Origin: a virus
Lineage: Duplodnaviria > Heunggongvirae > Uroviricota > Caudoviricetes
DNA: 64,000 nucleotides
Virus record (IMG/VR): IMGVR_UViG_3300033076_000972
Location: 43,329 to 107,328 of that record
Strand: one strand, 5' to 3'
The notes beneath the pieces were generated by a model. It was given only the letters and a program-made list of their open reading frames with translations, was not told the origin of the DNA and made no database searches. Shown in pieces: positions 302 through 62,994 of the stretch. Numbering within the stretch: the first letter of the stretch is position 1; every line of letters starts with the position of its first letter. The translations under genes and the position numbers were made by a program.

Positions 302-890
302 AAATTTAAAACAAATGAATAACTTAATTTCTGAAATGAAGAAATTAACTAATGACCCCGACGCATTAAAAAACCCACAAGCCATGATGGACTCTATGGG
401 TATTAACCAAGAAGAATTGGAAAAACAATTATCGGGTCTGTTGTCCAAAAAAGCAACATTAAAATATACTAAAATACACCCTGAATCTGTTGACCCAAAG
501 TATAATTACGAAAGTGACTCAGGATTTGATTTACATTCAACAGAGGATATTACTGTAGAAGGACTAGGTAGAGCGTTGGTTCCAACAGGATTAAGGTTTG
601 ATATTCCAATGGGTCACGAAATACAAGTTAGACCAAAGAGTGGTTTAGCATTAAAAGAAGGTTTAACAGTTTTAAACACACCGGGAACTGTTGATGCCGG
701 ATATGATGGAGAAGTTAAGGTTATTATTTACAATACAAACCCACAGTCATATCAAGTAAAAAAAGGACAAAAAATTGCACAAGCTGTTTTATGTCCGGTA
801 TTAAATGGTAAATTTGTAACATTACACGAAGTAGTTGAATTAAATGAAAAAGAACGAGGCTCAAACGGATTTGGTTCCACAGGAATCTAA
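294..890 (+). CDS. dut: dUTP diphosphatase (dUTPase) with an N-terminal extension of about 55 aa
   Basis: Canonical dUTPase motifs are present: SGFDLHS (motif 1), GTVDAGYDGEV (motif 3), and a C-terminal RGSNGFGSTG (motif 5). The ORF track starts at TTG 279; the first ATG is at 294. Confidence 0.9.
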   Translation: MFKNLKQMNNLISEMKKLTNDPDALKNPQAMMDSMGINQEELEKQLSGLLSKKATLKYTKIHPESVDPKYNYESDSGFDLHSTEDITVEGLGRALVPTGLRFDIPMGHEIQVRPKSGLALKEGLTVLNTPGTVDAGYDGEVKVIIYNTNPQSYQVKKGQKIAQAVLCPVLNGKFVTLHEVVELNEKERGSNGFGSTGI

Positions 891-1266
891 TATCAGTCCA
901 GTATTACCTAACGGTGTTAAAAACTACTTGATTGATATTGATGGTACCATCACAGAAGATGTACCTAATGAAGAACCAGAACGTATGGCAACTTGTTTAC
1001 CATACAAAGGTTCTGTTGATATGATTAATTCTTGGTATGATGAAGGAAATGTTATTACTTTCTTTACTTCAAGAACCAATGAACATGAAGTAGTTACCAA
1101 ACAATGGTTAGATAAACACGGTTTTAAGTACCATTATTTATTACTTAATAAACCAAGAGGTGGAAATTATCATTGGATTGATAATCACATTGTCAGAGCA
1201 ACTCGTTATGACGGTAAATGGAGTGAATTAGTTAAGAAAGAACACACAATAGAAGTATTTGAATAA
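844..1266 (+). CDS. HAD-superfamily phosphatase, possibly a nucleotidase or a Pnk-like 3'-phosphatase domain
   Basis: LIDIDGTITED matches the DxDGT HAD motif I. Its size and position next to dUTPase fit that reading. The annotated start overlaps dut by 47 nt, so the true start is uncertain. Confidence 0.55.
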   Translation: MKKNEAQTDLVPQESNISPVLPNGVKNYLIDIDGTITEDVPNEEPERMATCLPYKGSVDMINSWYDEGNVITFFTSRTNEHEVVTKQWLDKHGFKYHYLLLNKPRGGNYHWIDNHIVRATRYDGKWSELVKKEHTIEVFE

Positions 1267-28206: not shown

Positions 28207-29976
28207 TTATCTTCTACCGAATAACCATAAATACTGTTCATAATCCTTTTTTGTTGGATTTGATGAAAAAGTATCATTATGACTTGATGGTGATAAAACA
28301 GGAATACCAGGATGAAATTGTGTTATTTCTCTGTTTGTACTATCATCGGCAACAGTCCAAGAACTTAACATGGCTTTAGTTTGTTCATTAACTTTTTCAA
28401 GTTGATTATAAGCGTTTTGACCTACATATAAAGCCATTGATATTGACATAATTAAATCATCATGATGTCCTTTCATGTGGTCAGGTCTTCCGTTCATATA
28501 CACAAACGTATTCATTTCACCAAGTAATCTTTGTGAATACAATTTAAATCCGTGTCTTAAAGCTTCCTCAAATGCTGATATAATTTGAACCCTTTTACTG
28601 TTGAAGTTAATACCTGGTATTTTTTCGTTTGACTTAACTGTTGATTCCCAAATATTTCCATAATTGATACCATCAACATATAAATTTTTATATCCCATTT
28701 CTTGTAACTTTCTTGATGTAGATACACCCATACCACCTGTGATATCAATTACAATAAATGCATCATAATAATTTCCCCACTTATATGCAATTTCAGCTGC
28801 AACATCAGGAGGTAGTTTTCCAACATATTCAGCAACTTGTTCTCTTTCATCAAAATCAATAACTTGAAACGATGTAAAGTCTTCTGAATCACCTCTTGAT
28901 ACGTCCATACCCATAATGTATCTGTGTCCAACAACTGGTTCTTTCCAAATCCACAATTGATTCTGAACCATCTTTGATTCAGGATGACGAACCATTTCAG
29001 TTCTAATTTTGTCGGTTAATTGTGCGTCAAACACGTTATCACCTGAACCCAAAAAGTTACATTCCAATTCCTGAGAAATTTTTCTCTTATCAAACTTTAA
29101 CTTTTTAGCCATGGTTTCAAACCAAGTAGAACTTACTTTGTAACCATCATCCATCAATTTTTTAAACTCATCAAAATTTCTCTCACTTTGTGGAATACCT
29201 TCATAACTTATAATTTCAGGGTTAGGATATTCTTCACGATTCAAAAAATAATGTATAATATCTTTAACCTTAATAAAATATAAATCTTTAGTATATCTTG
29301 GGTCTCTCCACCAAAACATTTCAGTAATCTTGAAATTATTCATCGCCTTTACAGCTTGTTCATAGATACTGTAATAAATTGCGTCATATCCATTCGGTGT
29401 GGAAATAACAATAACTTTACCACCTGTAGAAAGTGAAGCCATACAAGCTGCCCAGAAATCATCACCAGCCTCAATATACGCCGCCTCGTCAAATATTAAC
29501 ACGGTAGGGGTATAACCACGAAGTGCGTCATTTGACGTTGCAACGGCTTTAACCTCACAACCATTACTTAATTTCCAATGTCGAGCAGCATTTTTTTCGG
29601 TGGAAAATGTAACTCCCATCCATGCTGGCCATTGTTCTGTAAATTGTTTAATTTTATTTGCAAATTCAACAGATGTATCTAACTTGTTTGCAATAATCAA
29701 AATTTTCTCAGGTTTTTCTTTTTTAGCAAAAACCAATTTTTTTGAACTCCAAGCAGCAGTTACTGTTGATACACCCGCTTGACGATACTTTAAAGCAATG
29801 TTTTCTTCGTAGTTGTCATAATCTTCAACTAACTGAATTTGGTCGGCAAATAAATCTAAGGGAACGTATTTTGACTGTGTATTGTCATACGTTTGTAGAT
29901 ATGTTCTTAAAGCATATGGTGTGTTTCTTACACACTTGGCATATTCTATAAGGGCTTGTTCTTTTGTGATACTCAT
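28207..29976 (-). CDS. terL: Terminase large subunit
   Basis: N-terminal ATPase with a Walker A-like YRQAGVST and Walker B VLIFDEAAY. A C-terminal nuclease-sized domain is present; total 589 aa. Confidence 0.8.
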   Translation of the reverse strand: MSITKEQALIEYAKCVRNTPYALRTYLQTYDNTQSKYVPLDLFADQIQLVEDYDNYEENIALKYRQAGVSTVTAAWSSKKLVFAKKEKPEKILIIANKLDTSVEFANKIKQFTEQWPAWMGVTFSTEKNAARHWKLSNGCEVKAVATSNDALRGYTPTVLIFDEAAYIEAGDDFWAACMASLSTGGKVIVISTPNGYDAIYYSIYEQAVKAMNNFKITEMFWWRDPRYTKDLYFIKVKDIIHYFLNREEYPNPEIISYEGIPQSERNFDEFKKLMDDGYKVSSTWFETMAKKLKFDKRKISQELECNFLGSGDNVFDAQLTDKIRTEMVRHPESKMVQNQLWIWKEPVVGHRYIMGMDVSRGDSEDFTSFQVIDFDEREQVAEYVGKLPPDVAAEIAYKWGNYYDAFIVIDITGGMGVSTSRKLQEMGYKNLYVDGINYGNIWESTVKSNEKIPGINFNSKRVQIISAFEEALRHGFKLYSQRLLGEMNTFVYMNGRPDHMKGHHDDLIMSISMALYVGQNAYNQLEKVNEQTKAMLSSWTVADDSTNREITQFHPGIPVLSPSSHNDTFSSNPTKKDYEQYLWLFGRR

Positions 29977-41381: not shown

Positions 41382-41765
41382 GGGGATGAATGGAATCGAC
41401 AGGTATTGTTGATTGATGGATGCACGTATGAGCTGAGTTAACTCATTAAAAACTGATTTAAAAAATTAGACGGCAACGTTTTGAACAAAATGGCAGCTAT
41501 CGGTTTAATCCGTGAAGATGCTTCTGTATTAGCTTAATTGTTAGTACAACTCAGGTCGGGGGACATATAACCTAGGAACAGAAGTCTTGAGAGATGTGGT
41601 TTCTATCTTAAAAGAAACAAGTGGAGGATTAGTTCTCAGTAAACCGAACCACTATAAAATAAGGGAATTGTGAAGTTCGGAACATTAGCAAATGTTGACC
41701 TAAACGTGTAGTATCTATTGGTTAAGGTAGACTGGACGAGGGTTCGATACCCTCCATCTCCACCA
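41382..41765 (+). ncRNA. ssrA: tmRNA (SsrA), phage-encoded, with the CCA encoded in the DNA
   Basis: The 5' end GGGGATGAATGGAATCGACAGG aligns with E. coli GGGGCUGAUUCUGGAUUCGACGGG. The 3' end GGACGAGGGTTCGATACCCTCCATCTCCACCA aligns with GGACGCGGGUUCAACUCCCGCCAGCUCCACCA. A 7-bp acceptor stem (GGGGATG/CATCTCC, one G-U pair) and a T-arm GAGGG-TTCGATA-CCCTC are present. Upstream of the tag, AAAAAUUAGAC is followed by the resume codon GGC at 41472, giving the tag GNVLNKMAAIGLIREDASVLA and a TAA at 41535. Confidence 0.8.
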
Positions 41766-41800: not shown

Positions 41801-41856
41801 GTAAATTAGAAAAATTGTCGTATCTTTGTATTGTTAATCACTACCACTATGACAAC
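41791..41856 (+). repeat. Direct repeat copy 1 (T-run + promoter + 5' gene start), about 65 nt
   Basis: Near-identical to 42331-42395, with three mismatches. Confidence 0.8.
41799..41828 (+). promoter_or_regulatory. Promoter TTG-N19-TATCTTTG (duplicated cassette, copy 1)
   Basis: TTG at 41799 and TATCTTTG at 41821-41828. The ATG at 41849 is about 14 nt from the predicted TSS. Confidence 0.55.
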
Positions 41857-50627: not shown

Positions 50628-51311
50628 GAATCTTTTAAACCAATTCAAAGATTCTTGGATTGATTCTTTTACTTTTTCAGGGTCTTCAATACCTTCAAAA
50701 GTATCTGTTGAACCAAATGGTCCTGGTGAATCAAACTCGTATGCTGGTTTTTCTTCAGGGTACATTTCTTCACCGTCAGCTGATAAATCTAATGACATGT
50801 CATTTTTATCATCTAATGAATAAACATCATCGTGTTGGAATTGTTCAGGACCTTTAGAATCAAAATCATAATTATCAAAGTCTAATTCTGAATAAGGTTC
50901 AGCAACTTCATTTACACCTTCGTACATTCCACCACACTCATTACAAACACCTTCATTATACATTCCACCACATTCACACATTTCATTTTCAACATAATCA
51001 AATGCTCCGTAATGTGGTTCAGCAACAGGTCCACCTGCTTTGTATCCACACTCCATACATTCACCTTCATACATGTTACCACCACACTCACATTTTTCAC
51101 CCATTGATTCATTAATACCAACGTTGGTATAAGATTTAACCTCACCTTTATTATTAACTGTTACACCGCCTTTATCACCCGCTGGGTCATAAGTGTGAAT
51201 TCTGTTATCAGGTTCAGGAAATCTTAATGTTTGATAACCATCATATGGTTTATTATGTTGGCTTAATAAGGCTTGTTTTTCTTCGTCAGAAATGTTTAAC
51301 ATGTATCTCAT
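50613..51311 (-). CDS. Cys-rich repeat protein (3x CECGG-x-MYEG-x-C-x-ECG)
   Basis: KCECGGNMYEGECMECGYKAGG, MCECGGMYNEGVCNECGGMYEG and related units suggest zinc-ribbon-like repeats. Confidence 0.45.
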   Translation of the reverse strand: MRYMLNISDEEKQALLSQHNKPYDGYQTLRFPEPDNRIHTYDPAGDKGGVTVNNKGEVKSYTNVGINESMGEKCECGGNMYEGECMECGYKAGGPVAEPHYGAFDYVENEMCECGGMYNEGVCNECGGMYEGVNEVAEPYSELDFDNYDFDSKGPEQFQHDDVYSLDDKNDMSLDLSADGEEMYPEEKPAYEFDSPGPFGSTDTFEGIEDPEKVKESIQESLNWFKRFSKFN

Positions 51312-51471
51312 ACCTAATAAATATAATAATTTTCTAAAATCTACTTGATTCTAAAATTAAACTTTATTACAATTTCATTACAGGGTTAGGGAATGGTAAT
51401 TTAAGTCTCAAAGCATCTTGGTAATTTGTAAAAGCCCTAAATTCCATTCCACCCTTTTTTAAAACTAAAAA

Positions 51472-51768
51472 ATGAACTTTAATATAGATTTGGATGAATA
51501 CGCTGAAGGAGCCATTTTATTAGATGGACTTGAAGAAGCAATTATTGGTATTGTTGAAGAATTTGGAAACGGAAGAAGGGTCTTATATTCAAAACCAAAA
51601 ATATTATCAATCCTATGTGAAAGAGATTTGATGACAATGGGTGAGGCAGAAGAATTCTATGACTATAACATTTTAGGTTTACATGCTGGTGAACAAAATG
51701 CGGTTTTCTTGGATGTAGAAATTTTACCTGAAAAAACCGATGACGGTTACAAATATTTGATTCCTTAA
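51472..51768 (+). CDS. Hypothetical protein
   Basis: 98-aa ORF. Confidence 0.4.
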   Translation: MNFNIDLDEYAEGAILLDGLEEAIIGIVEEFGNGRRVLYSKPKILSILCERDLMTMGEAEEFYDYNILGLHAGEQNAVFLDVEILPEKTDDGYKYLIP

Positions 51769-51787
51769 TTTTTTTATTGTATCTTTG
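51757..51787 (+). promoter_or_regulatory. Promoter TTG-N20-TATCTTTG; the ATG lies about 5 nt from the -7 box, which implies a leaderless or near-leaderless mRNA
   Basis: TTG at 51757, TATCTTTG at 51780-51787, and the first ATG at 51792. Confidence 0.5.
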
Positions 51788-51791
51788 TAAC

Positions 51792-52442
51792 ATGAAATTG
51801 ATTTTAGAAAAGAATCAACAATTGTTTTTTACAAGTGATACTCACTATTCACACTCAAACATCTGTCGTGCAACGACTCGTTGGAACGGTGCGGATAATT
51901 TGACTCGTGATTTTAAATCGCTTGAACACATGAATGACACATTGGTAAACAATATCAATGAAGTTGTTGGTGAAAATGACATTTTGATTCACTTGGGTGA
52001 CTGGTCTTTTGGTGGATTTGAACAAATTCAAGATTTCCGTAATCGAATTTTGTGTAAAAACATTCACTTAATTTACGGAAACCACGACCACCACATTAGA
52101 AGAAATAAAGGTGATATACAAGAGATTTTTAGTTCAACTCAAGATTATATACACTTGGATTTAAGGATTCCAAACGGTAAAGAAGTTGATAAAATGACTT
52201 TGGTTTGTATGCACTACCCAATTGCAAGTTGGGATGGAATGAACGATGGTGTAATCCACTTACACGGTCACGTTCACTTACCACCTAATTTAAGACTTGC
52301 CGAAGGTAAAGCGATGGATGTTGGTGTTGACGGAAATAATTTGTATCCTATCAACATAAAAGAAATCCGTTCTATTATGAAAGATAGACCTCACAGAAAA
52401 TTAACATTACCTAAAGACCATCACGAAAAAAGAATTGACTAA
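51792..52442 (+). CDS. Calcineurin-like metallophosphoesterase
   Basis: Motifs SDTHYSH (D-x-H), GDWSFGG (GD), GNHDHH (GNHD/E) and HGHVH (GH-x-H). Confidence 0.75.
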   Translation: MKLILEKNQQLFFTSDTHYSHSNICRATTRWNGADNLTRDFKSLEHMNDTLVNNINEVVGENDILIHLGDWSFGGFEQIQDFRNRILCKNIHLIYGNHDHHIRRNKGDIQEIFSSTQDYIHLDLRIPNGKEVDKMTLVCMHYPIASWDGMNDGVIHLHGHVHLPPNLRLAEGKAMDVGVDGNNLYPINIKEIRSIMKDRPHRKLTLPKDHHEKRID

Positions 52443-52443
52443 T

Positions 52444-52866
52444 ATGACAACTTATACATCACAAGGAAAAAACCTTTATCTATTACGTGGAGTACCAGGA
52501 GCTGGTAAATCTACATTGGCAAAACAACTTGGTTGTACTCATTTTGAGACTGACACTTATTTTATGGTAGACGGTGAATACAAATTTGACCCGTCCAAAT
52601 TAAAAGATGCTCACAAGTGGTGTCAAGATGAAGTACATAATGCGATGATTCTGAATATCACCACAGGTGAACATTCTGATATTGTAGTTTCTAATACATT
52701 TACCCAAGCATGGGAAATGGAACCATATATGGAACTTGCTAAAAGTTGGGGATATAGAGTATTTTCATTGGTTGTTGAGCATAGACACGAGGGGTCTAAT
52801 CAACACAATGTTCCCGAAGAAAAGTTACAACAAATGACTGACAGATTTGAACTTAAATTAAAATAA
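52444..52866 (+). CDS. P-loop polynucleotide kinase-like protein (5'-OH kinase candidate)
   Basis: Walker A LLRGVPGAGKSTLAKQLG resembles the T4 Pnk and bacterial Pnkp kinase domains. It is 143 aa and starts 1 nt after the phosphoesterase stop. Confidence 0.55.
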   Translation: MTTYTSQGKNLYLLRGVPGAGKSTLAKQLGCTHFETDTYFMVDGEYKFDPSKLKDAHKWCQDEVHNAMILNITTGEHSDIVVSNTFTQAWEMEPYMELAKSWGYRVFSLVVEHRHEGSNQHNVPEEKLQQMTDRFELKLK

Positions 52867-52871
52867 AATAT

Positions 52872-53699
52872 ATGATTAAAAAACTAACACTTACGATGAT
52901 GGTGTTGTTTGCCACCTTAACAGCAAACGCAAGATGTGATTGGAGTAAAGTTACTCTCCAACAATGGAATTCTGGAACTTATTACAAATGGTACTTGAGA
53001 GGTTTTGATGTTGATTCTTGTAAATCAATGACGTTCCTAATGTATGATTTTCAGACTAAAAAAATTGACACGTTGTACCAACTTAACGGTTTGTGTCAAG
53101 TATCGTTTAATGTACCTGGTACATATAAACTCTATGTCAAATTGATTGACAAATGTAACAAGTGTGATACCGCTTTGTATCGTACGGTTGAAATTCAAAG
53201 ATGGTCACCAAAGGCATCTTATTCGGGTAAATTGGTAACTTGTGATAGTTTGGTTGGTGAAATGACCAAAGTAACTACAACTGACACTTGTTACCGTTAT
53301 TATTACACATTATATCATGGTGATGAATTAGATTCACTAACTCAACAACAATGGGATACTATGAGTGAAATGGATTTAGCAGTATCATATTCTTGGAACC
53401 CAAATGATGTTCATTATTATTCTGATAATTCAAGATTGATTAAATATAAATTTCCACATAATGGTAGATTCTTATTATTAGTTCAATACTATAATACATG
53501 TAATGAACAAGATACGTTCTTTATTCGAAAATATACGATTAATTGTAATTCTATTGGTCTTACAGAGTTGAAAAAATCGGAACCTAAATTGATTGGTGTT
53601 TATGATATGATGGGTCGACCTGTTCCATATATTCGTAAAGAAGAAATTTTAATTTACCTTTATGATAATGGAACAACCAAAAAGGTATTAATACACTAA
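52872..53699 (+). CDS. Secreted Cys-rich protein with a putative T9SS type-A C-terminal sorting domain
   Basis: Signal peptide MIKKLTLTMMVLFATLTANA. The C-terminal VYDMMGRPVPY…IYLYDNGTTKKVLI resembles the Por_Secre_tail (vYDllGRkV…GvYfv) consensus. Confidence 0.4.
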   Translation: MIKKLTLTMMVLFATLTANARCDWSKVTLQQWNSGTYYKWYLRGFDVDSCKSMTFLMYDFQTKKIDTLYQLNGLCQVSFNVPGTYKLYVKLIDKCNKCDTALYRTVEIQRWSPKASYSGKLVTCDSLVGEMTKVTTTDTCYRYYYTLYHGDELDSLTQQQWDTMSEMDLAVSYSWNPNDVHYYSDNSRLIKYKFPHNGRFLLLVQYYNTCNEQDTFFIRKYTINCNSIGLTELKKSEPKLIGVYDMMGRPVPYIRKEEILIYLYDNGTTKKVLIH

Positions 53700-53720
53700 T
53701 TTTATTTATTTCAAATATTT

Positions 53721-53756
53721 AAAATCCCCCACCTTAAAAATGGGGGATTTTTTTTA
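53721..53756 (+). terminator. Intrinsic terminator
   Basis: AAAATCCCCCACCTTAAAAATGGGGGATTTTTTTT. Confidence 0.7.
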
Positions 53757-53803
53757 CACTCAGAATACCTTTTAATGACTATTATTGTCTATACTTATAA
53801 AAT

Positions 53804-56800
53804 ATGAAGAAGTTATTGCTTTTTATGATGTTCTTGTTCAGTTTCTTGACTGTACAAGCAACCCACATGATGGGTGCAGATGTTTCCTACAAATGTTTGG
53901 GAAATGGAAAATATAAAATTATTGCTAAAGTTTACCGAGATTGTAGGGGTGTGTCTATGGGTACACCATCATTTGGTGCTTATGCAGGGTTAAACGGTGG
54001 AAATGGTTGTGGTAACTATACACTAAGTGGATTATCAAGGGTTTCAATTAAAGATGTTACCACAAGATGCTCAACTACTAGTAACCCGTGTGGTTCACCT
54101 AACTCAGCGTTTGCTAATAAAGGTGTTGAGGAACACACATTTGAAGCTACGATTGATTTTAATACGTCACCATTAAATAATTTTGTTAATAAATCAACAT
54201 GTTGTGAGGTTACATTTTATGTAAATGAATGTTGTAGAAATGGTGCAATTAGTACAGGTCAAGCCTCTCAAAATTTTTATGCAACTGCAATGATTAATAT
54301 TTGTAACCTTCAGAAAATGAAGGACAAATGTAACAGTTCACCACAACTATCAAACCCACCTATTGCCTTTCTATGTTGTAATCAGCCTTGGTATTATAAT
54401 AATGGTGCCATAGATACAATAGATTATGATTCAATTTCATATAAATTAGTCAATGGACTTCAAGGTATTCCAAATAGTTCGGTATCATACGCCTCACCAT
54501 TTACCGCAAAAGTTCCCATGACACCGTATTGTGTACCACCTACAACCATAAACTGTGTGCCAAACCCAAAAACAAATCCACCGAGAGGTTTTTATTTTGA
54601 CACCACAAATGGTGATGTTATTACGACACCAACTAAATGTGATGAATCTGCCGTTATATGTGTTGAACAGACTGAATGGAGAAAAGATACGTCAGGTGTA
54701 TGGCGTGTAATTGGTAGAACAAGACGTGACATGCAAGTTTGGGTTAGGGATGATTGTGGTTATAATAAAGCACCAACTCTTGGTCCAAAGTTTACATATC
54801 AAGTTTGTGAGGGTGAAACATTAAAATTCAAAGTGGAATCTGACGATGAAACATTTACACCGTATCAAACAACTCCTGACACAACAACAATGAAGTGGAA
54901 TGCGGGTATTCCCGGTGCAAAGTTTACATTAGCAAATAAAAGTGATTGGCCTGAAAAACGTAAGTCATATGCTTGGTTTGAATGGACACCTCCGATTGGT
55001 TCAGCTTCTGATATATCATATTCATTTACAGTTACAGTTAGTGACCAACACTGTGAACCACCAGCAACATCAATTCGTTCATTCAAGATTAAGGTTAATC
55101 CAAAACCTAAATCAAAACGTAGATATACACAATTAAAGTGTGGTAGGTTTGCCATGGAAGCATATGAAATATATGCAGCATCAAGTTATTCTTGGAGTGT
55201 TAGAGATACCTTAGCGAAAGAATTATTTTACTCTTCAAAGAAAACAGATACCATGAACTATTACTATGAAGGTAAGTACATTATAGTTCATAAATTAACA
55301 AGTGCTCAGTCATGTGTAACAATTTATAGTGATACTGTTTATCTAACACAACCACCAAAAGTAATATTGGCCGATGCTGATAGTTTTGCTTGTTATGGAA
55401 CAACTTTCAATCTCAAAGCAAAAGTTATTGCGGGTAAACCTACGTTGAAATATAAGTGGAACAACGGTGATACTTTGGACTATACCACAATCAAAAACTT
55501 CAAAAAAGATTCAACATTGATGTTGGAAGTAACGGATGGTGATGGTTGTAAATTCCGTGATACAACAAAAACATTTGTTAAACCATTACCTGTTGTTAGT
55601 TTGGGTTCAGATAAAGTTATCTGTACATATGAAACTAACACATTTGATGGTCAAAACAACGATACCGTAAAATACTTGTGGAGTACTGGTGATACTACCC
55701 GTTACATGACAACTAATCTCAAGGGAATCTATTGGGTTAAAATTACTGACACCACATATATGTGTGTTAAATACGACACGGCAATATTAGTTGTGAATGA
55801 TACTGTAATATCCAATGCGGGACCAAACCAAGCAATTTGTGATAAAGACACATTCATATTAAAGGCAACACACAATCCGTTTATTTTAACTCCAACATAT
55901 ACTTGGGGTGGATTGGGTAATTTGTCAACCTATAAGTTGAAATCTGATATAACAAAATCAGCTTATATGTTTACATTGAAGACGGTGATTACTCAAAATG
56001 GTCACACCTGTGAAGACATGGATACTATTTTTGTTAGAGTTAAACCATTACCAAAAATTAGTTGGAATCCAAAACCATTAAAACCACAATGTTATTCTTA
56101 TGGTGATATTTGGATGGAACCATTCTTGGTTAAACCTCATAACTTTGGAACATATGAAATATGGAGCGGAAGCAAAAATAAAATAGGAAACATTGTTACG
56201 AATCCATCTAACGGACGATTCCTGTTCAACACCCAATCATTGGACAACAGCAAACTACAGGGAGGTAATAACTACACCACCAAAATGTATGTTAAGTTTA
56301 ATGATACAAATGGTTGTTATAATATAGATTCAACAACCCAAGTAATTTATGGTACTCCATTAATTCAGTTAAAAAGTGCAACTGTTTGTCAGAACGCTAA
56401 ATTTTTAATGATGGACAATGTGAGAGTAAGACCCGCAACCAAAAACGGTGTAAGTATGTTATGGCAGGTAGTGAGAGGACCTGCAGGTGTTGACACTTCC
56501 AAGTTATTGATGAATATCTCAACAAATTCAACACCAAACATAATGTTTTGGTTTGGCACTGGCAATTCAAATTACTATAAGGGAAAATATACATTCAGAC
56601 TTACTGTTAAAGACGTACTCACTGGTTGTCAAAGCACAGATACTGTTGACATAAACGTTGCTGGTGAACCCGTTGTTTCATTAAAACCTCTACCAATATT
56701 CTGTGAGAACTCAGGTGTGAATATCAATTTGTTTGATTATGTTGATGTCAGTTATGTTACGGGTGGAATTGTAACAAAAAAACTGTCTATTCAAGATGTT

Positions 56801-58345
56801 AACGGTGATAAAAATGACCCAAGAGTGTTGACTGATTTATCCTCAGGATTTTTCAGAACAAGTCTTGGTGTGGGAACATATAAGATTAAAGTTCTTAGTA
56901 CAATATTGGACCCTAATTATTTAGTAACATGCTCAAGAGTAGATAGTTTCGATGTTGTTATCAGTTATAAACCTGACCTCAGAAAAATAGATATGGGTTT
57001 TTGTTCTACTCGTCCTTGGCCATTTGATTTGAAAACAGTAATTACATCTGAAAGTTGGGGTGTTGTAAAAATCACTTATCCTGATGGGGAATTTTTTACA
57101 CCCACTCCAAAGGCAAAAGGGTATATTGGTGGATTTAATAATCCCTATAAATTCATGATGGTAGGTGAAAGTCAATATGGTTGTAAAGATACTGAAATAC
57201 TAAAACTCACTGTGATGAATCAACCTGAGATTAAATTTGTTCCACCATTTGTAAGTTGTGGTAAAGATACTTGGACTCTAAAATTGGATACTGCGAATAT
57301 TGACCCAGCAGTTAAATTTAGATGGGTTGTTAATACAGGTCTTTATGATACTTTAACACCTCCTGGTGGAGAAGTGATTGGTGGAAAATGGGGGTTTGGT
57401 AAAAAACAATATATTCCAGATAACAAAGATACCTCAAGGGGTTACTTCACGGTAAAATTCAAATCATGGAATGCACCTCTTTGTGCTAAAGTTATTGACT
57501 CTGTTAAAGTTTTAATAACACCTTATCCTGAACCAGACTTTATAACAACAAATGGGTGTCAACCACATTCTATAATGTTCACACCAACAGAAAAAAGAGG
57601 TATCAAATCGATGACTTATTCTTGGGGAATAAATGATACATTTTCACAAGGTGGTAATTCAAGTTGGTCAAAGACATTTACTGACGTTGGATATTACAGA
57701 ACATCTTTAAGTGCTGTCAATACAACATTTACTCCCGACAAAATATGTGGAACTGTGATTACTAAAACATTTGAGGTATATCCAAAACCATACGCAATAT
57801 TTAGTACTGACCCATTATATAAAACAACAATTGCTTTACCTAGATTTAAGACGATAAACTCATCAAGTGTTAGTCAAAATCCATTTATAACTAAATTGGA
57901 TTACAGTTGGAGTTGGGGAAAAACATTCAAAACGGGTACTGACTCTACCAAGTCACCAAACATTATATTTGGTAAAGATACAGGACTATATTGGATTAAG
58001 TTAGTAACGACTACAGATAAAGGGTGTAAAGATTCTACCATGACTCGTGTTGTTATTGGACCTGATATTATAATATTTGTCCCTGACGCATTCACACCTG
58101 ATAATGCTGGTCCAAATGAAAACAATACATTTATTCCAAAAGTTACTAATCATAAAACATTTTATATGGGTGTTTACAACCGCTGGGGTGAAAAATTGTA
58201 TGAAACAACTGACCTAACAAAAGGTTGGGATGGTAATTATTTAGGAAAATCAGCACAACAAGGGGTTTATGTATATAAAATTATTGTAACTTCAATGGAA
58301 GATAAGGTTTTTCAATATAACGGAACTTTTACATTACTTAGATAA
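53804..58345 (+). CDS. Giant secreted adhesin-like protein with a T9SS type-B (gliding-motility-associated) C-terminal domain
   Basis: Signal peptide MKKLLLFMMFLFSFLTVQA, then 1513 aa that are Cys/Thr/Asn-rich. The C-terminal FVPDAFTPDNAGPNENNTFIP…GVYNRWGEKLYETTDLTKGWDGNYLGKSAQQGVYVYKI matches the SprB-type CTD consensus (fsPNGDGiND…FNRWGekvf…gWDG…GvYyY). Confidence 0.8.
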   Translation: MKKLLLFMMFLFSFLTVQATHMMGADVSYKCLGNGKYKIIAKVYRDCRGVSMGTPSFGAYAGLNGGNGCGNYTLSGLSRVSIKDVTTRCSTTSNPCGSPNSAFANKGVEEHTFEATIDFNTSPLNNFVNKSTCCEVTFYVNECCRNGAISTGQASQNFYATAMINICNLQKMKDKCNSSPQLSNPPIAFLCCNQPWYYNNGAIDTIDYDSISYKLVNGLQGIPNSSVSYASPFTAKVPMTPYCVPPTTINCVPNPKTNPPRGFYFDTTNGDVITTPTKCDESAVICVEQTEWRKDTSGVWRVIGRTRRDMQVWVRDDCGYNKAPTLGPKFTYQVCEGETLKFKVESDDETFTPYQTTPDTTTMKWNAGIPGAKFTLANKSDWPEKRKSYAWFEWTPPIGSASDISYSFTVTVSDQHCEPPATSIRSFKIKVNPKPKSKRRYTQLKCGRFAMEAYEIYAASSYSWSVRDTLAKELFYSSKKTDTMNYYYEGKYIIVHKLTSAQSCVTIYSDTVYLTQPPKVILADADSFACYGTTFNLKAKVIAGKPTLKYKWNNGDTLDYTTIKNFKKDSTLMLEVTDGDGCKFRDTTKTFVKPLPVVSLGSDKVICTYETNTFDGQNNDTVKYLWSTGDTTRYMTTNLKGIYWVKITDTTYMCVKYDTAILVVNDTVISNAGPNQAICDKDTFILKATHNPFILTPTYTWGGLGNLSTYKLKSDITKSAYMFTLKTVITQNGHTCEDMDTIFVRVKPLPKISWNPKPLKPQCYSYGDIWMEPFLVKPHNFGTYEIWSGSKNKIGNIVTNPSNGRFLFNTQSLDNSKLQGGNNYTTKMYVKFNDTNGCYNIDSTTQVIYGTPLIQLKSATVCQNAKFLMMDNVRVRPATKNGVSMLWQVVRGPAGVDTSKLLMNISTNSTPNIMFWFGTGNSNYYKGKYTFRLTVKDVLTGCQSTDTVDINVAGEPVVSLKPLPIFCENSGVNINLFDYVDVSYVTGGIVTKKLSIQDVNGDKNDPRVLTDLSSGFFRTSLGVGTYKIKVLSTILDPNYLVTCSRVDSFDVVISYKPDLRKIDMGFCSTRPWPFDLKTVITSESWGVVKITYPDGEFFTPTPKAKGYIGGFNNPYKFMMVGESQYGCKDTEILKLTVMNQPEIKFVPPFVSCGKDTWTLKLDTANIDPAVKFRWVVNTGLYDTLTPPGGEVIGGKWGFGKKQYIPDNKDTSRGYFTVKFKSWNAPLCAKVIDSVKVLITPYPEPDFITTNGCQPHSIMFTPTEKRGIKSMTYSWGINDTFSQGGNSSWSKTFTDVGYYRTSLSAVNTTFTPDKICGTVITKTFEVYPKPYAIFSTDPLYKTTIALPRFKTINSSSVSQNPFITKLDYSWSWGKTFKTGTDSTKSPNIIFGKDTGLYWIKLVTTTDKGCKDSTMTRVVIGPDIIIFVPDAFTPDNAGPNENNTFIPKVTNHKTFYMGVYNRWGEKLYETTDLTKGWDGNYLGKSAQQGVYVYKIIVTSMEDKVFQYNGTFTLLR

Positions 58346-58346
58346 T

Positions 58347-58532
58347 ATGAAATTGATTAAAATTATTTTTTTGTGTATTTTATTAGTAGGGTGTGAAAAA
58401 GAACCAATTAACATAAACACTGAAAAACTTAAAAAATATCAAAGTGAAATTAAAACAACTCCTAAAAAAAATAGAAGAAAGTTTAAATTGGGTAAAAAGT
58501 CGTTCCATCTTTCAAAAATTCTAAAGAAATAA
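58347..58532 (+). CDS. Small lipoprotein
   Basis: Lipobox LLVGC (MKLIKIIFLCILLVGCEK), 61 aa, with a terminator after it. Confidence 0.45.
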   Translation: MKLIKIIFLCILLVGCEKEPININTEKLKKYQSEIKTTPKKNRRKFKLGKKSFHLSKILKK

Positions 58533-58535
58533 TTT

Positions 58536-58569
58536 AAAAACCCAAGATTTGATTATCTTGGGTTTTTTT
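58536..58569 (+). terminator. Intrinsic terminator
   Basis: AAAAACCCAAGATTTGATTATCTTGGGTTTTTTT. Confidence 0.75.
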
Positions 58570-58583
58570 ATTATAATAACTTC

Positions 58584-59264
58584 ATGAAAAAAAATATAAT
58601 AGGGATGATACTTTTAATCATTTTAGTAATTTTCTGTTTTATTAATATAAGTTCGAATTTATATTCAAAACCAAATTTACCAAATGATACCATAATTGTA
58701 ATACCAAAAGTTCAAGATACCGTTGTTGATATTAACGGAAAGTATGGAACTTTTATTGGTGATTCACACACATCAAATCATAATTCAGGATGGCAAGTTA
58801 TTGTTTGTAAAAAAACGGGTTTAAGAATGAACAATTTGTCTGTTTCAGGTAAAACAACAGGTTGGATGCTTGAAACTGCTAAAGTATCATTACACAAAGG
58901 TATTGATTATTGTTTTGTCTATGGTGGTGCCAATGATATGTATACAAAATCAATCACACCTAAAAGAGCGGTTTCAAATATTCAACAAATAGTTGATTTA
59001 TGTCACACATATAACATTCATTGTGTTGTTTTAACAGGTTTTGACCCGATTAAATGTACAAGAACATCAAATCCGGCTTATGGTCCAAGATACGCTCAAT
59101 TTCAAAAAATGTTAATGGATTCAATATCAGGTGCAACTGTTGTTGACACACGTGTAATTGATAGAACTGGATGTTGGGATGAATTATGTCATATGAATCC
59201 TGAAGGGCACAAAAAGATTGGGATGGAAGTAATTAAAACAATGAAATTTCATATTATCAAATAA
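58584..59264 (+). CDS. SGNH/GDSL-family hydrolase with an N-terminal signal anchor
   Basis: Block I FIGDSHT (GDS-x), block III GGANDM (G-x-ND) and block V DELCHMNPEGH (D-x-x-H). Hydrophobic N-terminus. Confidence 0.7.
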   Translation: MKKNIIGMILLIILVIFCFINISSNLYSKPNLPNDTIIVIPKVQDTVVDINGKYGTFIGDSHTSNHNSGWQVIVCKKTGLRMNNLSVSGKTTGWMLETAKVSLHKGIDYCFVYGGANDMYTKSITPKRAVSNIQQIVDLCHTYNIHCVVLTGFDPIKCTRTSNPAYGPRYAQFQKMLMDSISGATVVDTRVIDRTGCWDELCHMNPEGHKKIGMEVIKTMKFHIIK

Positions 59265-59270
59265 TTTTAT

Positions 59271-59278
59271 TATCTTTG
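59271..59278 (+). promoter_or_regulatory. -7 box TATCTTTG (no clear -33 TTG) directly upstream of the RNA ligase gene
   Basis: The motif sits 5 nt before the GTG at 59283. Confidence 0.3.
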
Positions 59279-59282
59279 TACT

Positions 59283-60317
59283 GTGTTACCTAAACTGAAC
59301 AAATATCATAATGATGGACTGTTATATAAACAGACACACCCAACATTACCGTTAACTATATGGAACTACACACCTGCGGTTCAATACGGTGAAAAATGGG
59401 ATGAAGTTACCTTGGCTTGTAGAGGTTTAGTTACTGACAACGAAGGTAATATTGTTGCAAGACCATTTAAAAAATTCTTCAATATAGAGGAAAACAAACA
59501 CACACCTACCCAAGATTTTGAAGTTTTTGAAAAAATGGATGGTTCTTTGGGTATTATATTCAAATACAATGGTGAAGTGATTTACGCAACTCGTGGTTCA
59601 TTCACATCTGACCAGGCGAAATGGATGGAAAACTACTGTAAAGAATATAACTTCAAAGATATATTAGTTGAAGGATTTACCTACCTATTTGAAATTATCT
59701 ATCCTGAAAACCGTATTGTTGTTGACTATGAAGGTCAAGAAAGATTGGTTTTACTCGGTATAATTAAAACTGAAACAGGTGAAGAAATACCGTATGATGA
59801 TATTGTGGTTGCGCCTTGGGATATTGTAGAAAAATATGATGGTATTCGGGATTATTCCGAATTAAAGAATAAAGTTTTACAAAATCATGAGGGATTTGTA
59901 GTTCGTTTTTCTAATGGAGACCGAATGAAAATCAAAGGTGAGGAATATCTACGTCTACATAAAATAATGACCAATATATCAACTACTGGTGTATGGGAAC
60001 ACTTATCAAAAGGTGGTGATATAAATGATTTACTCAAAGACGTACCTGATGAATTTTACAAGAAAGTAAAAGAATATGCGGATTTACTTAAGTATGGTTA
60101 TTATCAAGTTTCTGAATATTGTGGAAAAGCTCACGACTATTTCCGATATGGAAAGTATAATGATAGAGAAGTAGAACCAACTAAAAAACAATTTGCAGAC
60201 CACGTTATGAATTATGGTCATCCACCATATAGAGCAGTAATGTTTGCAATGTGGGATAAAAAACCTTATGATAAATTGATATGGAACATATTAAAACCGG
60301 AATTTAAAAAACTATAA
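59283..60317 (+). CDS. ATP-dependent RNA ligase, Rnl1 family (T4 RnlA-like)
   Basis: Motif I FEKMDGSLG (K-x-DGSL), motif IV HEGFVVRF and motif V MKIKGEEY. The N-terminal stretch ACRGLV…RPFKKFFNIEEN parallels T4 Rnl1 ECRGIMF…RPMEKFFNLNEN. The only in-frame start is GTG. Confidence 0.75.
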   Translation: MLPKLNKYHNDGLLYKQTHPTLPLTIWNYTPAVQYGEKWDEVTLACRGLVTDNEGNIVARPFKKFFNIEENKHTPTQDFEVFEKMDGSLGIIFKYNGEVIYATRGSFTSDQAKWMENYCKEYNFKDILVEGFTYLFEIIYPENRIVVDYEGQERLVLLGIIKTETGEEIPYDDIVVAPWDIVEKYDGIRDYSELKNKVLQNHEGFVVRFSNGDRMKIKGEEYLRLHKIMTNISTTGVWEHLSKGGDINDLLKDVPDEFYKKVKEYADLLKYGYYQVSEYCGKAHDYFRYGKYNDREVEPTKKQFADHVMNYGHPPYRAVMFAMWDKKPYDKLIWNILKPEFKKL

Positions 60318-60321
60318 AATT

Positions 60322-60591
60322 ATGCCAGATTTTACATCAGAAATTGAAATTGACGTTGAGGAGTTTTGGGACGAGTGCTCAAGACATGAACGTGAAGAAT
60401 TAGTTGACCTTTTAGAAGAACAAGGATATGTTAAAAGAGCTATCCCTAAAGGTGTTAAACCATCTCATTACACACCAAACTTAATGGAAATTGAGTGGAA
60501 TGAAACTATGGATAAGTTATCACAATTAAGATTACGAATTACTCGTGATGAAGAAGAAATTATAAAAGCATTGGTAAAAAAATATCTATGA
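60322..60591 (+). CDS. Hypothetical protein
   Basis: ORF. Confidence 0.4.
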   Translation: MPDFTSEIEIDVEEFWDECSRHEREELVDLLEEQGYVKRAIPKGVKPSHYTPNLMEIEWNETMDKLSQLRLRITRDEEEIIKALVKKYL

Positions 60592-60965
60592 GAAACTCAA
60601 AAACATATTACTCAGAAAAGAGTGAAAAAAACGAATTTTTGGAAATCTATTGGGTTAAAGATAAATACATCCCTAAAGAATACCAAGAGCTAACGGTTAA
60701 TTTAAATGGTAGTTATCACAGCTATGACATAAATAATTTTAATAGGTACACTATTGAGTCAATATCAAGAGGTTATATCCAAAATGTAACTTTTGGCGAT
60801 AAGTGGATTACCGATACTGAGTTTGTTAAAAAATTTACAAAAATATTGATACCAATCGTTGAGGAATTTAAAAAAGATGTTGAATACCGTTATTCACTTG
60901 ATGGATGGATTGGTAGAATTTTTATAGAACCTGTTGAGAATTTTTTTGACTGGTTAAAAAAATAG
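60588..60965 (+). CDS. Hypothetical protein
   Basis: ORF with an ATGA overlap. Confidence 0.4.
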   Translation: MRNSKTYYSEKSEKNEFLEIYWVKDKYIPKEYQELTVNLNGSYHSYDINNFNRYTIESISRGYIQNVTFGDKWITDTEFVKKFTKILIPIVEEFKKDVEYRYSLDGWIGRIFIEPVENFFDWLKK

Positions 60966-60981
60966 TTGTATATTTGAAGAC

Positions 60982-61239
60982 ATGTTAAAGAAATTTTATA
61001 ACCTCGAGTTTGGATTACAGATGCTAATTACAGCATTAGTACTGTTTTTCAGTAATCAACTGACAACTTATACATTAAGTATGTGTAACCTACCAAGTAC
61101 CATTATTGTAAATCTTGGATTAATTCTAACTTTTGTAATATTTTTAATTCAAACAATTGCAATCTTTGTTGGAATCAAAGCAATTATTAATTACGTAAAA
61201 CAAACAAAAACAAAAAATAACGATGAGCAATCTAACTAA
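60982..61239 (+). CDS. Small membrane protein (two TM helices)
   Basis: Hydrophobic segments ITALVLFFS and LILTFVIFLIQTIAIFVGI. Confidence 0.4.
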   Translation: MLKKFYNLEFGLQMLITALVLFFSNQLTTYTLSMCNLPSTIIVNLGLILTFVIFLIQTIAIFVGIKAIINYVKQTKTKNNDEQSN

Positions 61240-62077
61240 ACTTTTAATCGGAGTATCGGCATTGGTACTTTTGATTTTCGGATTCACAGGATGTGAACGA
61301 ATTGACGCAGGACACGTAGGTGTTAAAGTAAATCTTTATGGTGATGGTAAAGGTGTGGACGATGTAACTGAGGTTACGGGATGGGTATTGTATAACCCAA
61401 TCTCAACCAAAATTGTCGAGTTCCCAACTTACGTTCAACACAAAGAATATAAGAAAACTGAAGATGGTATTGACGAATCTTTTGTAGTAAACTCTAAAGA
61501 TGGTTCTGAATTTCATTGTTCTCCAATGGTGAACTACGCTGTAAAACGTGAGAAGGTTCCATATATCTTTGCAAAGTATCGTGTTGAGTTGGACCGAATT
61601 GAATCGGGTTTCTTGAAGACATCTATATTTGACGCATTCCGTGTGGTAGCCAACAGTTATACTGCGGACGCACTTATATCTAATCGACAGGAATTTGAAA
61701 TCAAAGTACGACAGGTATTGGAAAAACAACTCGCACCTGAAGGTTTTATATTACAACAATTTACATCAAACTTGGTTTACCCTGAAACGTTTAAAAAGGC
61801 AATTGAAGCTAAGAACAACGCAGTACAGTCGGCACTTATGGCGGAAAATCAGGTTAAAACTGCTGAAGCACAGGCAAGAATTAAAATTGCAACCGCAGAA
61901 GGTAACGCACAGGCTTTATTGACAAACGCAAGAGCTGAGGCGGAATCTAACAAGTTGAGACAACAAACTTTAACACCGTTGTTACTTCAACAAATGTGGA
62001 TTGAGAAATGGCAAGGAAGTGTACCAAGTACTGTACTTGGAAGTGGTCAAAACTTAATGTTTGGATTGAACAAATGA
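61223..62077 (+). CDS. SPFH/band-7 (prohibitin / HflC-like) lipoprotein
   Basis: Lipobox LLIFGFTGC. The IDAGHVGVKVNLYG stretch marks the SPFH domain start, and the C-terminal coiled coil AEAQARIKIATAEGNAQALLTNARAEAESNKLRQ is typical of HflK/C and prohibitins. Confidence 0.55.
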   Translation: MSNLTKLLIGVSALVLLIFGFTGCERIDAGHVGVKVNLYGDGKGVDDVTEVTGWVLYNPISTKIVEFPTYVQHKEYKKTEDGIDESFVVNSKDGSEFHCSPMVNYAVKREKVPYIFAKYRVELDRIESGFLKTSIFDAFRVVANSYTADALISNRQEFEIKVRQVLEKQLAPEGFILQQFTSNLVYPETFKKAIEAKNNAVQSALMAENQVKTAEAQARIKIATAEGNAQALLTNARAEAESNKLRQQTLTPLLLQQMWIEKWQGSVPSTVLGSGQNLMFGLNK

Positions 62078-62295
62078 TAAACGTCTATTTACCATACTTA
62101 AATGATTTCTTTGATGAAATGGAATCGGCTCAAGAATCTTGGGACAAAAAGATTGAAGAAGTCAAAAGAGAATATTTTGAGGTAACGCCAAATCTTCCTC
62201 GTAAACAAAAAAAGAGACGAAGAAAGGAATTGAATGAAGAATATCGTTTTTTGGTAAGTATAAAAGATTATCAAGCAAACATGTTTACTTATTAA
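62074..62295 (+). CDS. Small basic hypothetical protein
   Basis: An ATGA overlap with the SPFH gene's stop is preferred over the longer 62008 start. A terminator follows. Confidence 0.4.
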   Translation: MINVYLPYLNDFFDEMESAQESWDKKIEEVKREYFEVTPNLPRKQKKRRRKELNEEYRFLVSIKDYQANMFTY

Positions 62296-62334
62296 AATAA
62301 TTAACCCGAGACTTTGTTATCTCGGGTTTTTTTT
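62296..62334 (+). terminator. Intrinsic terminator
   Basis: CCCGAGACTTTGTTATCTCGGG hairpin followed by T8. Confidence 0.75.
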
Positions 62335-62351
62335 ATTATATTTGTGGTAAT

Positions 62352-62528
62352 ATGGAACTATTATATATTGTACTTGGAACGTGGATTGGAATAGTTTTTA
62401 CTTATTTTCAATGGTACAGACCTATGGATGAAAAAATCAAAAACCTTGAAGAAGGAATTCACGATTGTATTAAAGCGGGTTTGATGGGACCAACAAACGG
62501 TGGTTCTGTCGATAAAGACATGGATTAA
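62352..62528 (+). CDS. Small membrane protein (58 aa, single TM; holin-like size)
   Basis: MELLYIVLGTWIGIVFTYFQW is one hydrophobic helix, followed by a charged tail. It is below the cutoff of the ORF track, and its stop abuts the next gene. Confidence 0.3.
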   Translation: MELLYIVLGTWIGIVFTYFQWYRPMDEKIKNLEEGIHDCIKAGLMGPTNGGSVDKDMD

Positions 62529-62532
62529 AATT

Positions 62533-62994
62533 ATGATAACATTTCAGGAAATTGAACGTAAGTTTTTATTAAAACGGTTCCCACGTCTTGCAAAAATTAA
62601 TACGGTATATCAAATCGAACAATGGTACCATGCCGATGGGTTTAGGTATAGACATCAACTTGAAATCACAACCGGTGATATCAAGATATTCAAGACAAAA
62701 AAAACCAACATTTCAAAAGGGGTAAACCAAGAAGAAGAAACTATTTTAAGCCAAAATGAGTTTCAACAACTTGATTTGGCAAATTCTCTTCATATTAAAA
62801 AGACAAGAACTGTTGTAAAACACAAAGGACACAAATTAGAAATTGATAAATACGAAGGTATGAACATTGTCATTATGGAAATCGAACTTGGTGACATTAA
62901 TGAAAAATACTCACTACCAAAATATATCGAAAAAGAAATTTTATACGAGGTGACGGGTATTAAAGAATTTAGTAATAAAAGTTTAGCAGAATGA
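62533..62994 (+). CDS. CYTH-domain protein (triphosphate tunnel metalloenzyme, CyaB / ThTPase-like)
   Basis: The N-terminal EIERKFLL is the defining ExExK motif of the CYTH fold. Length (153 aa) and downstream acidic residues fit this family. Confidence 0.6.
   Translation: MITFQEIERKFLLKRFPRLAKINTVYQIEQWYHADGFRYRHQLEITTGDIKIFKTKKTNISKGVNQEEETILSQNEFQQLDLANSLHIKKTRTVVKHKGHKLEIDKYEGMNIVIMEIELGDINEKYSLPKYIEKEILYEVTGIKEFSNKSLAE

Follow-up and report, generated by a model that had tools for sequence, protein, structure and literature searches.

Within a 64,000-nt stretch of a tailed-phage genome (IMG/VR record IMGVR_UViG_3300033076_000972, positions 43,329 to 107,328; hereafter the window), two neighbouring genes encode a binuclear metallophosphoesterase (MPE) and a minimal P-loop kinase. 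We propose that they form a split, two-protein end-healing pair for the repair of RNA, most likely tRNA, with an Rnl1-family ligase encoded downstream as the sealing enzyme, and we give this reading a probability of about 0.65. Phages classically counter host anticodon nucleases by heal-and-seal repair of the cleaved tRNA, and interest in such repair has been renewed by the many newly described defence systems that cut tRNA. The three genes are as follows.

51792–52442, plus strand: stand-alone binuclear MPE of the aq_1665 type, 216 residues (ATG at 51792, TAA at 52440–52442).
52444–52866, plus strand: stand-alone minimal P-loop kinase of the polynucleotide 5′-kinase clade, 140 residues (ATG at 52444).
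59283–60317, plus strand: Rnl1-family ATP-dependent RNA ligase, 344 residues (GTG at 59283), the proposed sealing enzyme.

The initial annotation had described an MPE open reading frame (ORF) with all metal-binding motifs, followed 1 nt past its stop codon by a P-loop kinase, and both coordinates and motifs confirm this arrangement: a single T (52443) separates the MPE stop from the kinase ATG. The kinase length of 143 residues given there would result from a TTG start at 52435, with an overlap of 8 nt between the kinase and MPE genes, whereas the 1-nt spacing fits only the ATG start and its 140 residues. Because homologues begin near residue 9 (MKNLYLLRG), the kinase N terminus is not conserved and the choice of start leaves the domain unaffected. 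Neither gene is a chance ORF, with 6407 homologues for the MPE (best E 1e-131) and 2811 for the kinase (best E 1e-80). Structure, profiles, fusions and conserved neighbourhoods together lend good support to their predicted role as a healing pair for Rnl1.

First, the kinase has a P-loop fold closest to the polynucleotide kinase (Pnk) enzymes. It carries a Walker A motif (G16VPGAGKS23) of the form GxxxxGK[ST] and, within the interval about 13–20 residues past the P-loop, an Asp in the general-base position. Its family matches are AAA_33 in Pfam (1.8e-13) and, in PHROGs, family 2071 ‘ATPase’ (1.7e-39), with ‘polynucleotide kinase’ weaker; a single-sequence search of the PDB returned nothing below 0.18. 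An exhaustive search gave 8886 relatives. In a 90-sequence family alignment, which also served as profile, G21, D37 and Y95 are invariant and K22 almost so, and the family signature reads RG.PGSGKST...(A)D.YF...G.Y.FD...AH.WC...VSNTFT..WE..PY..LA...GY.V...ENRH...HGVP....M..RFE. Against the PDB, the best match of the profile is T4 polynucleotide kinase (residues 1–141, E 5.6e-8), followed by the tRNA kinase PSTK (8e-8), the stand-alone Mucorales RNA 5′-OH kinases (9D8A and 9DRZ, 4e-7 to 8e-7), the kinase domain of Clostridium thermocellum Pnkp (8e-6), Pnkp1 (3e-5) and mammalian PNKP (1e-3), all of which reach past the P-loop. The AlphaFold2 model (pLDDT 82), built like that of the MPE from a shallower alignment of database proteins, agrees with these matches; the initial annotation had likened the Walker A region to that of polynucleotide kinases. 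D37 aligns with Asp35, the general base of T4 Pnk; the Mucor kinase cannot do without its counterpart, Asp36, and the general-base role of this Asp is documented there (PMC11571804). From these features we propose that the protein is an RNA 5′-OH kinase.

The same comparisons bear on a role in nucleotide metabolism, with the kinase as a (deoxy)nucleoside monophosphate ((d)NMP) or nucleoside kinase and the MPE as a nucleotidase, both serving the phage supply of deoxynucleoside triphosphates. The relatives’ region does include thymidylate synthase and other nucleotide-metabolism genes, and some homologues are named ‘adenylate kinase family enzyme’ by JGI. Adenylate kinase 9 also matches the profile at 7.9e-8 and other adenylate kinases at 0.003–0.03, in each case over short P-loop segments only, and dNMP kinases are absent from the PDB matches at E ≤ 0.1. 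The closest fold and profile matches thus lie outside the NMP kinases, 140 residues are too few for an NMP-binding domain and lid, and the RNA ligase fusions described below argue otherwise. We consider this explanation very improbable.

Second, the MPE has all five motifs of the calcineurin-like, binuclear metallophosphoesterase superfamily (D16-x-H18, G69-D70, G96-N97-H98-D99, H141 and G159-H160-x-H162) together with its beta-sandwich fold. The key motif residues are invariant across 33 aligned homologues, down to 45% identity, as is an additional C-terminal D209-H210-H211. Pfam gave no match to the window protein even at E = 1 and NCBIfam nothing at its 0.01 limit, PHROG 547 ‘phosphoesterase’ matched at 1.9e-42, and a single-sequence PDB search found 1XM7 alone, weakly (0.002); classification needed PHROGs, a family profile and the structure model. 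Of all solved proteins the family profile matches a single one, Aquifex aq_1665 (1XM7), over the full length (E 5e-8), and aq_1665 is also the top structural match. In comparisons with solved proteins the values are 16.1 for aq_1665, 10.4 for LpxH, 10.0 for MJ0936, 9.7 for lambda phosphatase, 9.5 for YfcE, 8.6 for Mre11, 8.5 for SbcD and 8.3 for the CthPnkp phosphatase. Specific similarity to Mre11/SbcD, with a capping domain and a Rad50/SbcC partner, was not found. The two outcomes that the initial annotation had named as telling against a healing pair, a dNMP-kinase-like kinase and an MPE that groups with Mre11/SbcD or with protein phosphatases, are not what we see.

The phosphate-binding His that follows the Asn of the GNH motif is a reported determinant of 2′,3′-cyclic phosphodiesterase activity in MPEs (PMC3675462). 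This position is H98 in the window protein, invariant in the alignment; H98 permits opening of a 2′,3′-cyclic phosphate, without proving it. We propose that the MPE is an end-healing enzyme for RNA 2′,3′-cyclic-phosphate or 3′-phosphate ends.

The downstream Rnl1 ligase of the initial annotation is present, its ORF beginning 6.4 kb past the kinase stop codon. It matches PF09511 (6.7e-22, 78.9 bits against a cut-off of 28.3), phrog_562 (2e-75) and T4 Rnl1 (2C5U, 3e-24), with motifs I (K-M-D-G), IV (EGFVV) and V (KIK) aligned. Its TIGR02308 score of 93.7 bits lies under the equivalog cut-off of 242, which makes it a member of the Rnl1 family and not an equivalog of T4 RnlA.

Third, relatives of the kinase are fused to repair domains. 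Among the best 150 representatives we found, at 43–55% identity to the window kinase, kinase–Rnl1 fusions (P0260, P0330 and P0332) and fusions with an N-terminal HD phosphohydrolase (P0378, P0382 and P0390); the latter share the motif signature of the window kinase at 43–47% identity. None of the ten multi-domain proteins scanned from this set is an MPE–kinase fusion; two candidates, P0287 (346 residues) and P0323 (297 residues), were rejected on the scan, the N terminus of P0287 weakly matching Rnl1.

Fourth, the genes remain linked across viral genomes. We fetched 68 IMG/VR viral contigs through the kinase, representing 42 distinct kinase sequences and as many loci, and, in the reverse experiment, loci with 65 distinct MPE sequences. 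ORFs within 10 kb, or less on short contigs, were queried with the window proteins and with proteins found en route. Near the kinase, this same MPE is encoded in 32 of the 42 loci (directly adjacent in 17) and an RNA ligase in 30 (Rnl1-type in 15, PHA02142-OB/RNA_ligase-type in 17); HAD_SAK_2, a ‘Swiss Army Knife RNA repair’ HAD protein, occurs in 8, either MPE or HAD_SAK_2 in 36, and ligase together with phosphoesterase in 27. The linkage is reciprocal and strong, for near the MPE we find the kinase in 57/65 loci, mostly within about 400 nt, an RNA ligase in 54/65, both in 51/65 and Rnl1 in 27/65. As a rough estimate, chance would place the single MPE gene of a 150–300 kb genome within 10 kb of a given gene in about 10% of cases and directly beside it in about 1%.

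The adjacent MPE–kinase pairs occur in either gene order, several with 1-nt gaps or 4-nt overlaps. One locus has MPE, kinase and Rnl1 in succession with 4-nt overlaps (L080), another the order Rnl1–MPE–kinase, spaced by 6 and 1 nt (L025), and two have MPE, kinase and OB-type ligase tightly packed (L032 and L050). The closest relatives (L008 and L013) keep the order of the window (ORF98-MPE-kinase-ORF275-...-GDSL-Rnl1) with an MPE–kinase gap of 153 nt or two small ORFs. Order, partners and ligase type shift while linkage is retained, a pattern of repeated rearrangement.

In many relatives the ligase by the kinase is a protein with PHA02142-OB and RNA_ligase (PF09414) domains instead of Rnl1, sometimes overlapping the kinase gene (L058:10482-11609, L016:13877-14932, L029, L032, L043, L050 and others), and some phages have both ligase types. 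Beside Rnl1, MPE or kinase, 22/65 MPE loci and 6/42 kinase loci also encode a protein of phrog_14949, which is absent from the window. It is exemplified by a 216-residue protein (L010:9327-9977) with no Pfam or PDB sequence match, and has homologues in L018, L022, L025, L065, L070, L080 and many of L110-L176; the repair module may include it as an additional member.

Some neighbourhoods point to tRNA. In three 289-kb phages (L010-L012), six or seven tRNA genes, a CCA-adding-like nucleotidyltransferase, Rnl1, the 216-residue ORF, MPE and kinase stand in one block; the nucleotidyltransferase (244 residues, PolyA_pol head) follows the tRNA cluster and lies directly upstream of Rnl1 (L010:5990-8270; also L011 and L012). 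A second MPE passing PF00149 and a HAD_SAK_2 protein lie about 9 kb upstream on the L010 contig.

Taken together, these data would fit the following sequence of events. A host ribonuclease (an anticodon nuclease, a HEPN-type enzyme or another metal-independent RNase) would cut tRNA. The two-metal centre of the MPE, with D16, H18, D70, N97, H141, H160 and H162 as predicted metal ligands and H98 binding the phosphate, would hydrolyse the cyclic or 3′ phosphate and leave a 3′-OH end. The kinase would move the gamma-phosphate of an NTP onto the 5′-OH, using K22 and S23 of the Walker A motif and D37 as general base, and Rnl1 (59283–60317) would join the 3′-OH and 5′-PO4 ends.

A number of observations weigh against this interpretation. 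The role of the MPE is its weakest link, because the MPE clade lacks a characterised member and its sole solved relative, aq_1665, is functionally unassigned. The MPE lacks the GDxxDRG arginine of the lambda-phosphatase-type enzyme in bacterial Pnkp, and it resembles CthPnkp or lambda phosphatases no more than it does unrelated MPEs, so that ‘bacterial Pnkp-like’, the term used in the initial annotation, holds for the domain combination only. In the kinase, the position of T4 Arg38, which contacts the acceptor, is F40, invariant in close relatives; the conserved R15 and R114 might take its place. Between kinase and Rnl1 the window has five ORFs, one of 1513 residues. ARAGORN found no tRNA gene in the whole window, so the tRNA link of the relatives cannot be shown there. 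Many of the counted loci are interrelated, and the counts thus overstate the number of independent events.

Further points of this kind concern the breadth of the MPE family and the nature of the substrate, and each has its own alternative. The MPE family occurs in 992 phage records against 620 for the kinase, and it is found without a nearby kinase, as in Flavobacterium phage immuto. These facts would be expected if kinase and RNA ligase were the repair unit and the MPE, linked to them only through a counter-defence cluster, hydrolysed something else: nucleotides, defence signals derived from cyclic nucleotides or ADP-ribose, or dinucleoside polyphosphates. The clade has no assigned substrate, its nearest solved structures include LpxH, YfcE, MJ0936 and Ap4A hydrolases, some kinase loci that adjoin a ligase lack the MPE or have a HAD_SAK_2 phosphatase only, and Aravind and colleagues predict degradation of signalling nucleotides by other phage calcineurin-like enzymes, the orthologues of the T5 A1 protein. 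However, the occurrence of the kinase in 57/65 MPE loci and adjacency in both orders, with 1-nt gaps or 4-nt overlaps, are hard to account for without a joint function. Moreover, loci that lack the MPE often have HAD_SAK_2 or a fused HD domain instead, the pattern expected for an interchangeable 3′-healing module. We regard a separate MPE substrate as unlikely, though as the strongest of the alternatives.

The other question is whether the ends are those of DNA, the pair acting as 3′-phosphatase and 5′-kinase for a DNA ligase in repair or as a replication accessory. Kinases related to this one act on DNA in vitro, among them T4 Pnkp, HD-Pnk and the Mucor kinase, which act on both DNA and RNA (PMC11571804), and DNA-end substrates are accordingly conceivable here. 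In the cultured phages NoPa and KB57, described below, a gene for an ATP-dependent DNA ligase lies a few kb from the MPE–Rnl1–kinase block, which keeps a DNA role in play. On the other side, the fusions and tight overlaps involve Rnl1 and PHA02142/RNA_ligase RNA ligases, not DNA ligases, and tRNA clusters and a CCA-adding-like enzyme share the operon-like block in L010-L012. DNA-end healing seems to us quite improbable, and repair of RNA by the pair together with Rnl1 remains the preferred reading.

Upstream of both ends of the proposed pathway, the window carries the same promoter-like 10-mer.

51780–51789, plus strand: promoter-like 10-mer TATCTTTGTA, 2 nt ahead of the MPE start codon, with TTG 20 nt upstream.
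59271–59280, plus strand: promoter-like 10-mer TATCTTTGTA, 2 nt ahead of the Rnl1 GTG.

The window contains seven exact copies of TATCTTTGTA (at 36014, 41270, 41821, 42360, 43709, 51780 and 59271), where shuffles expect 0.4, and all seven are intergenic and on the plus strand. It matches what we take to be the Bacteroidetes −7 promoter consensus, TAnnTTTG. The identical spacing to the two start codons suggests a common promoter class, under which the MPE–kinase pair and Rnl1 could be co-expressed; a 10-mer ending 2 nt before each start would imply nearly leaderless mRNAs. A scan of 51200–60500 for sigma-70 promoters and terminators gave chance-level results. The tmRNA gene described below has one copy 112 nt upstream, and the copies at 41821 and 42360 are within near-identical stretches of about 60 nt. 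The MPE and kinase had also been called translationally coupled, a putative coupling for which the 1-nt spacing is the sole indication; in the closest relatives the tight spacing is absent (153 nt or two ORFs).

A further protein had been named alongside the pair in the initial annotation.

844–1266, plus strand: stand-alone HAD (DxDGT) phosphatase, motif D31-I-D33-G-T35.

The ORF and its motif are present, and it is the sole HAD protein in the window. It matches LNS2 (1e-8), phrog_415 ‘polynucleotide kinase’ (1e-10) and HAD_PNKP (0.0099, under the Pfam cut-off), a weak resemblance to Pnkp phosphatase domains. It lies 51 kb from the kinase and MPE, between dUTPase and glycosyltransferase genes, and no fetched relative has a homologue within 10 kb of either gene. 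We reject it as a third member of the repair module, since it is not linked to the module in any related locus.

The remaining features of the window concern its setting. It is phage DNA, with PHROG matches to a major head protein (20307–22136), a portal protein (26331–28169) and a large terminase (28207–29976).

41382–41765, plus strand: full-length transfer-messenger RNA (tmRNA) gene (Rfam RF00023, 100.8 bits, E 3e-38, model positions 1–374).
53804–58345, plus strand: ORF of 1513 residues that begins with a signal-peptide-like segment, contains a PKD domain and has a CHU_C type IX secretion sorting domain at its C terminus.
61223–62077, plus strand: Band_7/SPFH protein (E 1e-19), downstream of Rnl1.
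62500–62994, plus strand: weak CYTH-like ORF (Pfam 4.6e-4, below cut-off; phrog_6660), downstream of Rnl1.

The CHU_C domain of the 1513-residue ORF indicates a Bacteroidota host. A phage protein apparently targeted to the type IX secretion system of its host is unusual; at its position, in the interval between kinase and Rnl1, the closest relatives (L008 and L013) have two far smaller ORFs. The tmRNA gene, missed by ARAGORN, has a tRNA-like 3′ end (...GGGUUCGAUACCCUCCAUCUCCACCA) with CCA encoded, and a phage-encoded tmRNA fits a broader kit for the protection or rescue of translation. L002 and L021 likewise have a Band_7 gene, placed there in the interval from kinase to Rnl1. The nearest cultured relative at the locus is Flavobacterium phage immuto, with 67–68% nucleotide identity over the MPE gene only. 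Its MPE homologue, the closest in a cultured phage, lies directly behind four tRNA genes (MW353176.1, region L001:6880-8651), and no kinase or RNA ligase is found within 10 kb of it; immuto and locus L162 are of one phage genus. A second annotated ‘phosphoesterase’ lies 2.2 kb downstream of the immuto MPE.

Both families are widespread in cultured phages under names that say little. By tblastn, the 620 records with the kinase include phages of Escherichia (198), Pseudomonas (173), Vibrio (89), Klebsiella (36) and others, and among the records listed the kinase is mostly annotated as ‘ATPase’ or ‘hypothetical protein’. The Rnl1 gene is followed after 2–3 nt by this ‘ATPase’ in phages NoPa (Pseudomonas) and PAc (Aeromonas), and after one small ORF in Klebsiella phage KB57 (Vequintavirinae). 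The ‘phosphoesterase’ 1–2 kb upstream in NoPa and KB57 is of the same MPE family (hhalign probability 99.4–99.7%). The surroundings of the NoPa block (L103) include an HD-type ‘metal-dependent phosphohydrolase’, and nicotinamide phosphoribosyltransferase and ribose-phosphate pyrophosphokinase, enzymes of NAD salvage; those of KB57 (L105) include Sir2. There are hints that the block in these two phages is part of a larger island of nucleic-acid repair and NAD genes.

The new elements are the clade of aq_1665-type MPEs, the near-obligate association of that clade with a single minimal kinase subfamily, the exchange of one ligase type for another, and the uninformative names that these genes bear in hundreds of phages, where the pair is currently labelled ‘phosphoesterase’ and ‘ATPase’. 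More tentatively, and at odds that we put somewhat short of even, the aq_1665-type MPEs may be an uncharacterised class of RNA 3′-end healing enzymes that forms with the minimal kinase a ‘split Pnkp’ plug-in kit, countering tRNA-cleaving defences beyond the T4/PrrC case. In such a kit the kinase would be constant, the phosphoesterases (MPE, HAD_SAK_2 or HD) and ligases (Rnl1 or PHA02142-OB) swappable and the phrog_14949 protein an extra component, and its carriers would be hundreds of cultured phages (rV5-like, Pakpuna-like, Vibrio, Aeromonas and Bacteroidota phages) and many uncultured ones. Should the predicted healing role hold, an MPE clade represented by a single crystal structure (1XM7, 2004) with no assigned function would gain one, two gene families in roughly 600–1000 sequenced phage genomes would have their annotation corrected, and the end-healing step would prove to be assembled from interchangeable stand-alone parts.

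The concept itself would be unchanged. The T4 Pnkp/Rnl1 pathway, the domain combination of bacterial Pnkp (Pnkp-Hen1), the alternative phosphoesterase of HD-Pnk and the stand-alone RNA kinases of Mucorales are already known, and for phages the idea has been anticipated in general terms by comparative genomics. In the relevant passages, Iyer, Anantharaman, Krishnan, Burroughs & Aravind (2021; PMC7824862) note that the ATP-grasp RNA ligases of phages come with polynucleotide kinases and phosphoesterases, and had already assigned, by inference, phosphatases of the calcineurin-like and HD-like kinds to RNA repair in phages. Their statement is a general one about jumbo phages; those passages do not include the aq_1665-type MPE, its near-obligate pairing with the kinase or the spread into hundreds of smaller cultured phages.

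Compared with T4 Pnkp and Rnl1, the window has, as predicted from its genes, the same set of a phage-encoded 5′-OH kinase, a 3′-end phosphoesterase and an Rnl1-family ligase. The T4 kinase is fused to a C-terminal HAD (DxDxT) 3′-phosphatase, whereas here the kinase ends at residue 140 and its neighbour is an MPE. T4 Arg38 is replaced by F40, and the ligase scores 93.7 against the equivalog score of 242.

Bacterial Pnkp (Pnkp-Hen1 of Clostridium thermocellum and Capnocytophaga) combines, as here, a Pnk-clade kinase with a binuclear MPE, and in Capnocytophaga Pnkp1-Rnl-Hen1 the ligase chain is separate from Pnkp1, going by the name of PDB entry 4XRP, as is the ligase here. The bacterial enzyme is one polypeptide with a ligase-like module, and its MPE has the GDxxDRG arginine that the phage MPE lacks; here two ORFs are divided by a stop codon and a 1-nt spacer, with no nucleotidyltransferase domain attached. 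Among the ORFs nearby (51472–53699 and 58584–62994), Pfam and PHROG scans revealed no methyltransferase, Hen1 or otherwise. The likeness of the MPE to aq_1665 is uninformative on its substrate, because 1XM7 is functionally unassigned; the extra C-terminal D-H-H is a feature of the phage protein, the alignment with 1XM7 stopping before it.

Runella slithyformis HD-Pnk, as described in the passages on it in PMC6097658, is a biochemically defined 2′,3′-phosphoesterase and 5′-OH kinase whose gene adjoins and overlaps a ligase gene. It thus joins a non-HAD phosphoesterase to a Pnk-type kinase beside a ligase gene, the same layout as in the HD–kinase relatives found here; its phosphoesterase is of the HD type and fused, whereas that of the window is an MPE and unfused. 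Our scan of genome contigs with the HD–kinase alignment, which carried HD-domain patterns only, returned unrelated HD proteins and did not place Runella HD-Pnk in the kinase subfamily. The kinase domain of Runella HD-Pnk, like that of human N4BP2, would have the ...DxYF...AH.WC...NT...WE... signature in common with it. Finally, the Mucorales enzymes MciKIN, RazKIN and LcoKIN are GTP-specific kinases of eukaryotic tRNA splicing, whereas ours is a phage kinase; like it, they are small stand-alone polynucleotide kinases, which work alongside an RNA ligase of its own chain and depend on an Asp as general base (PMC11571804).

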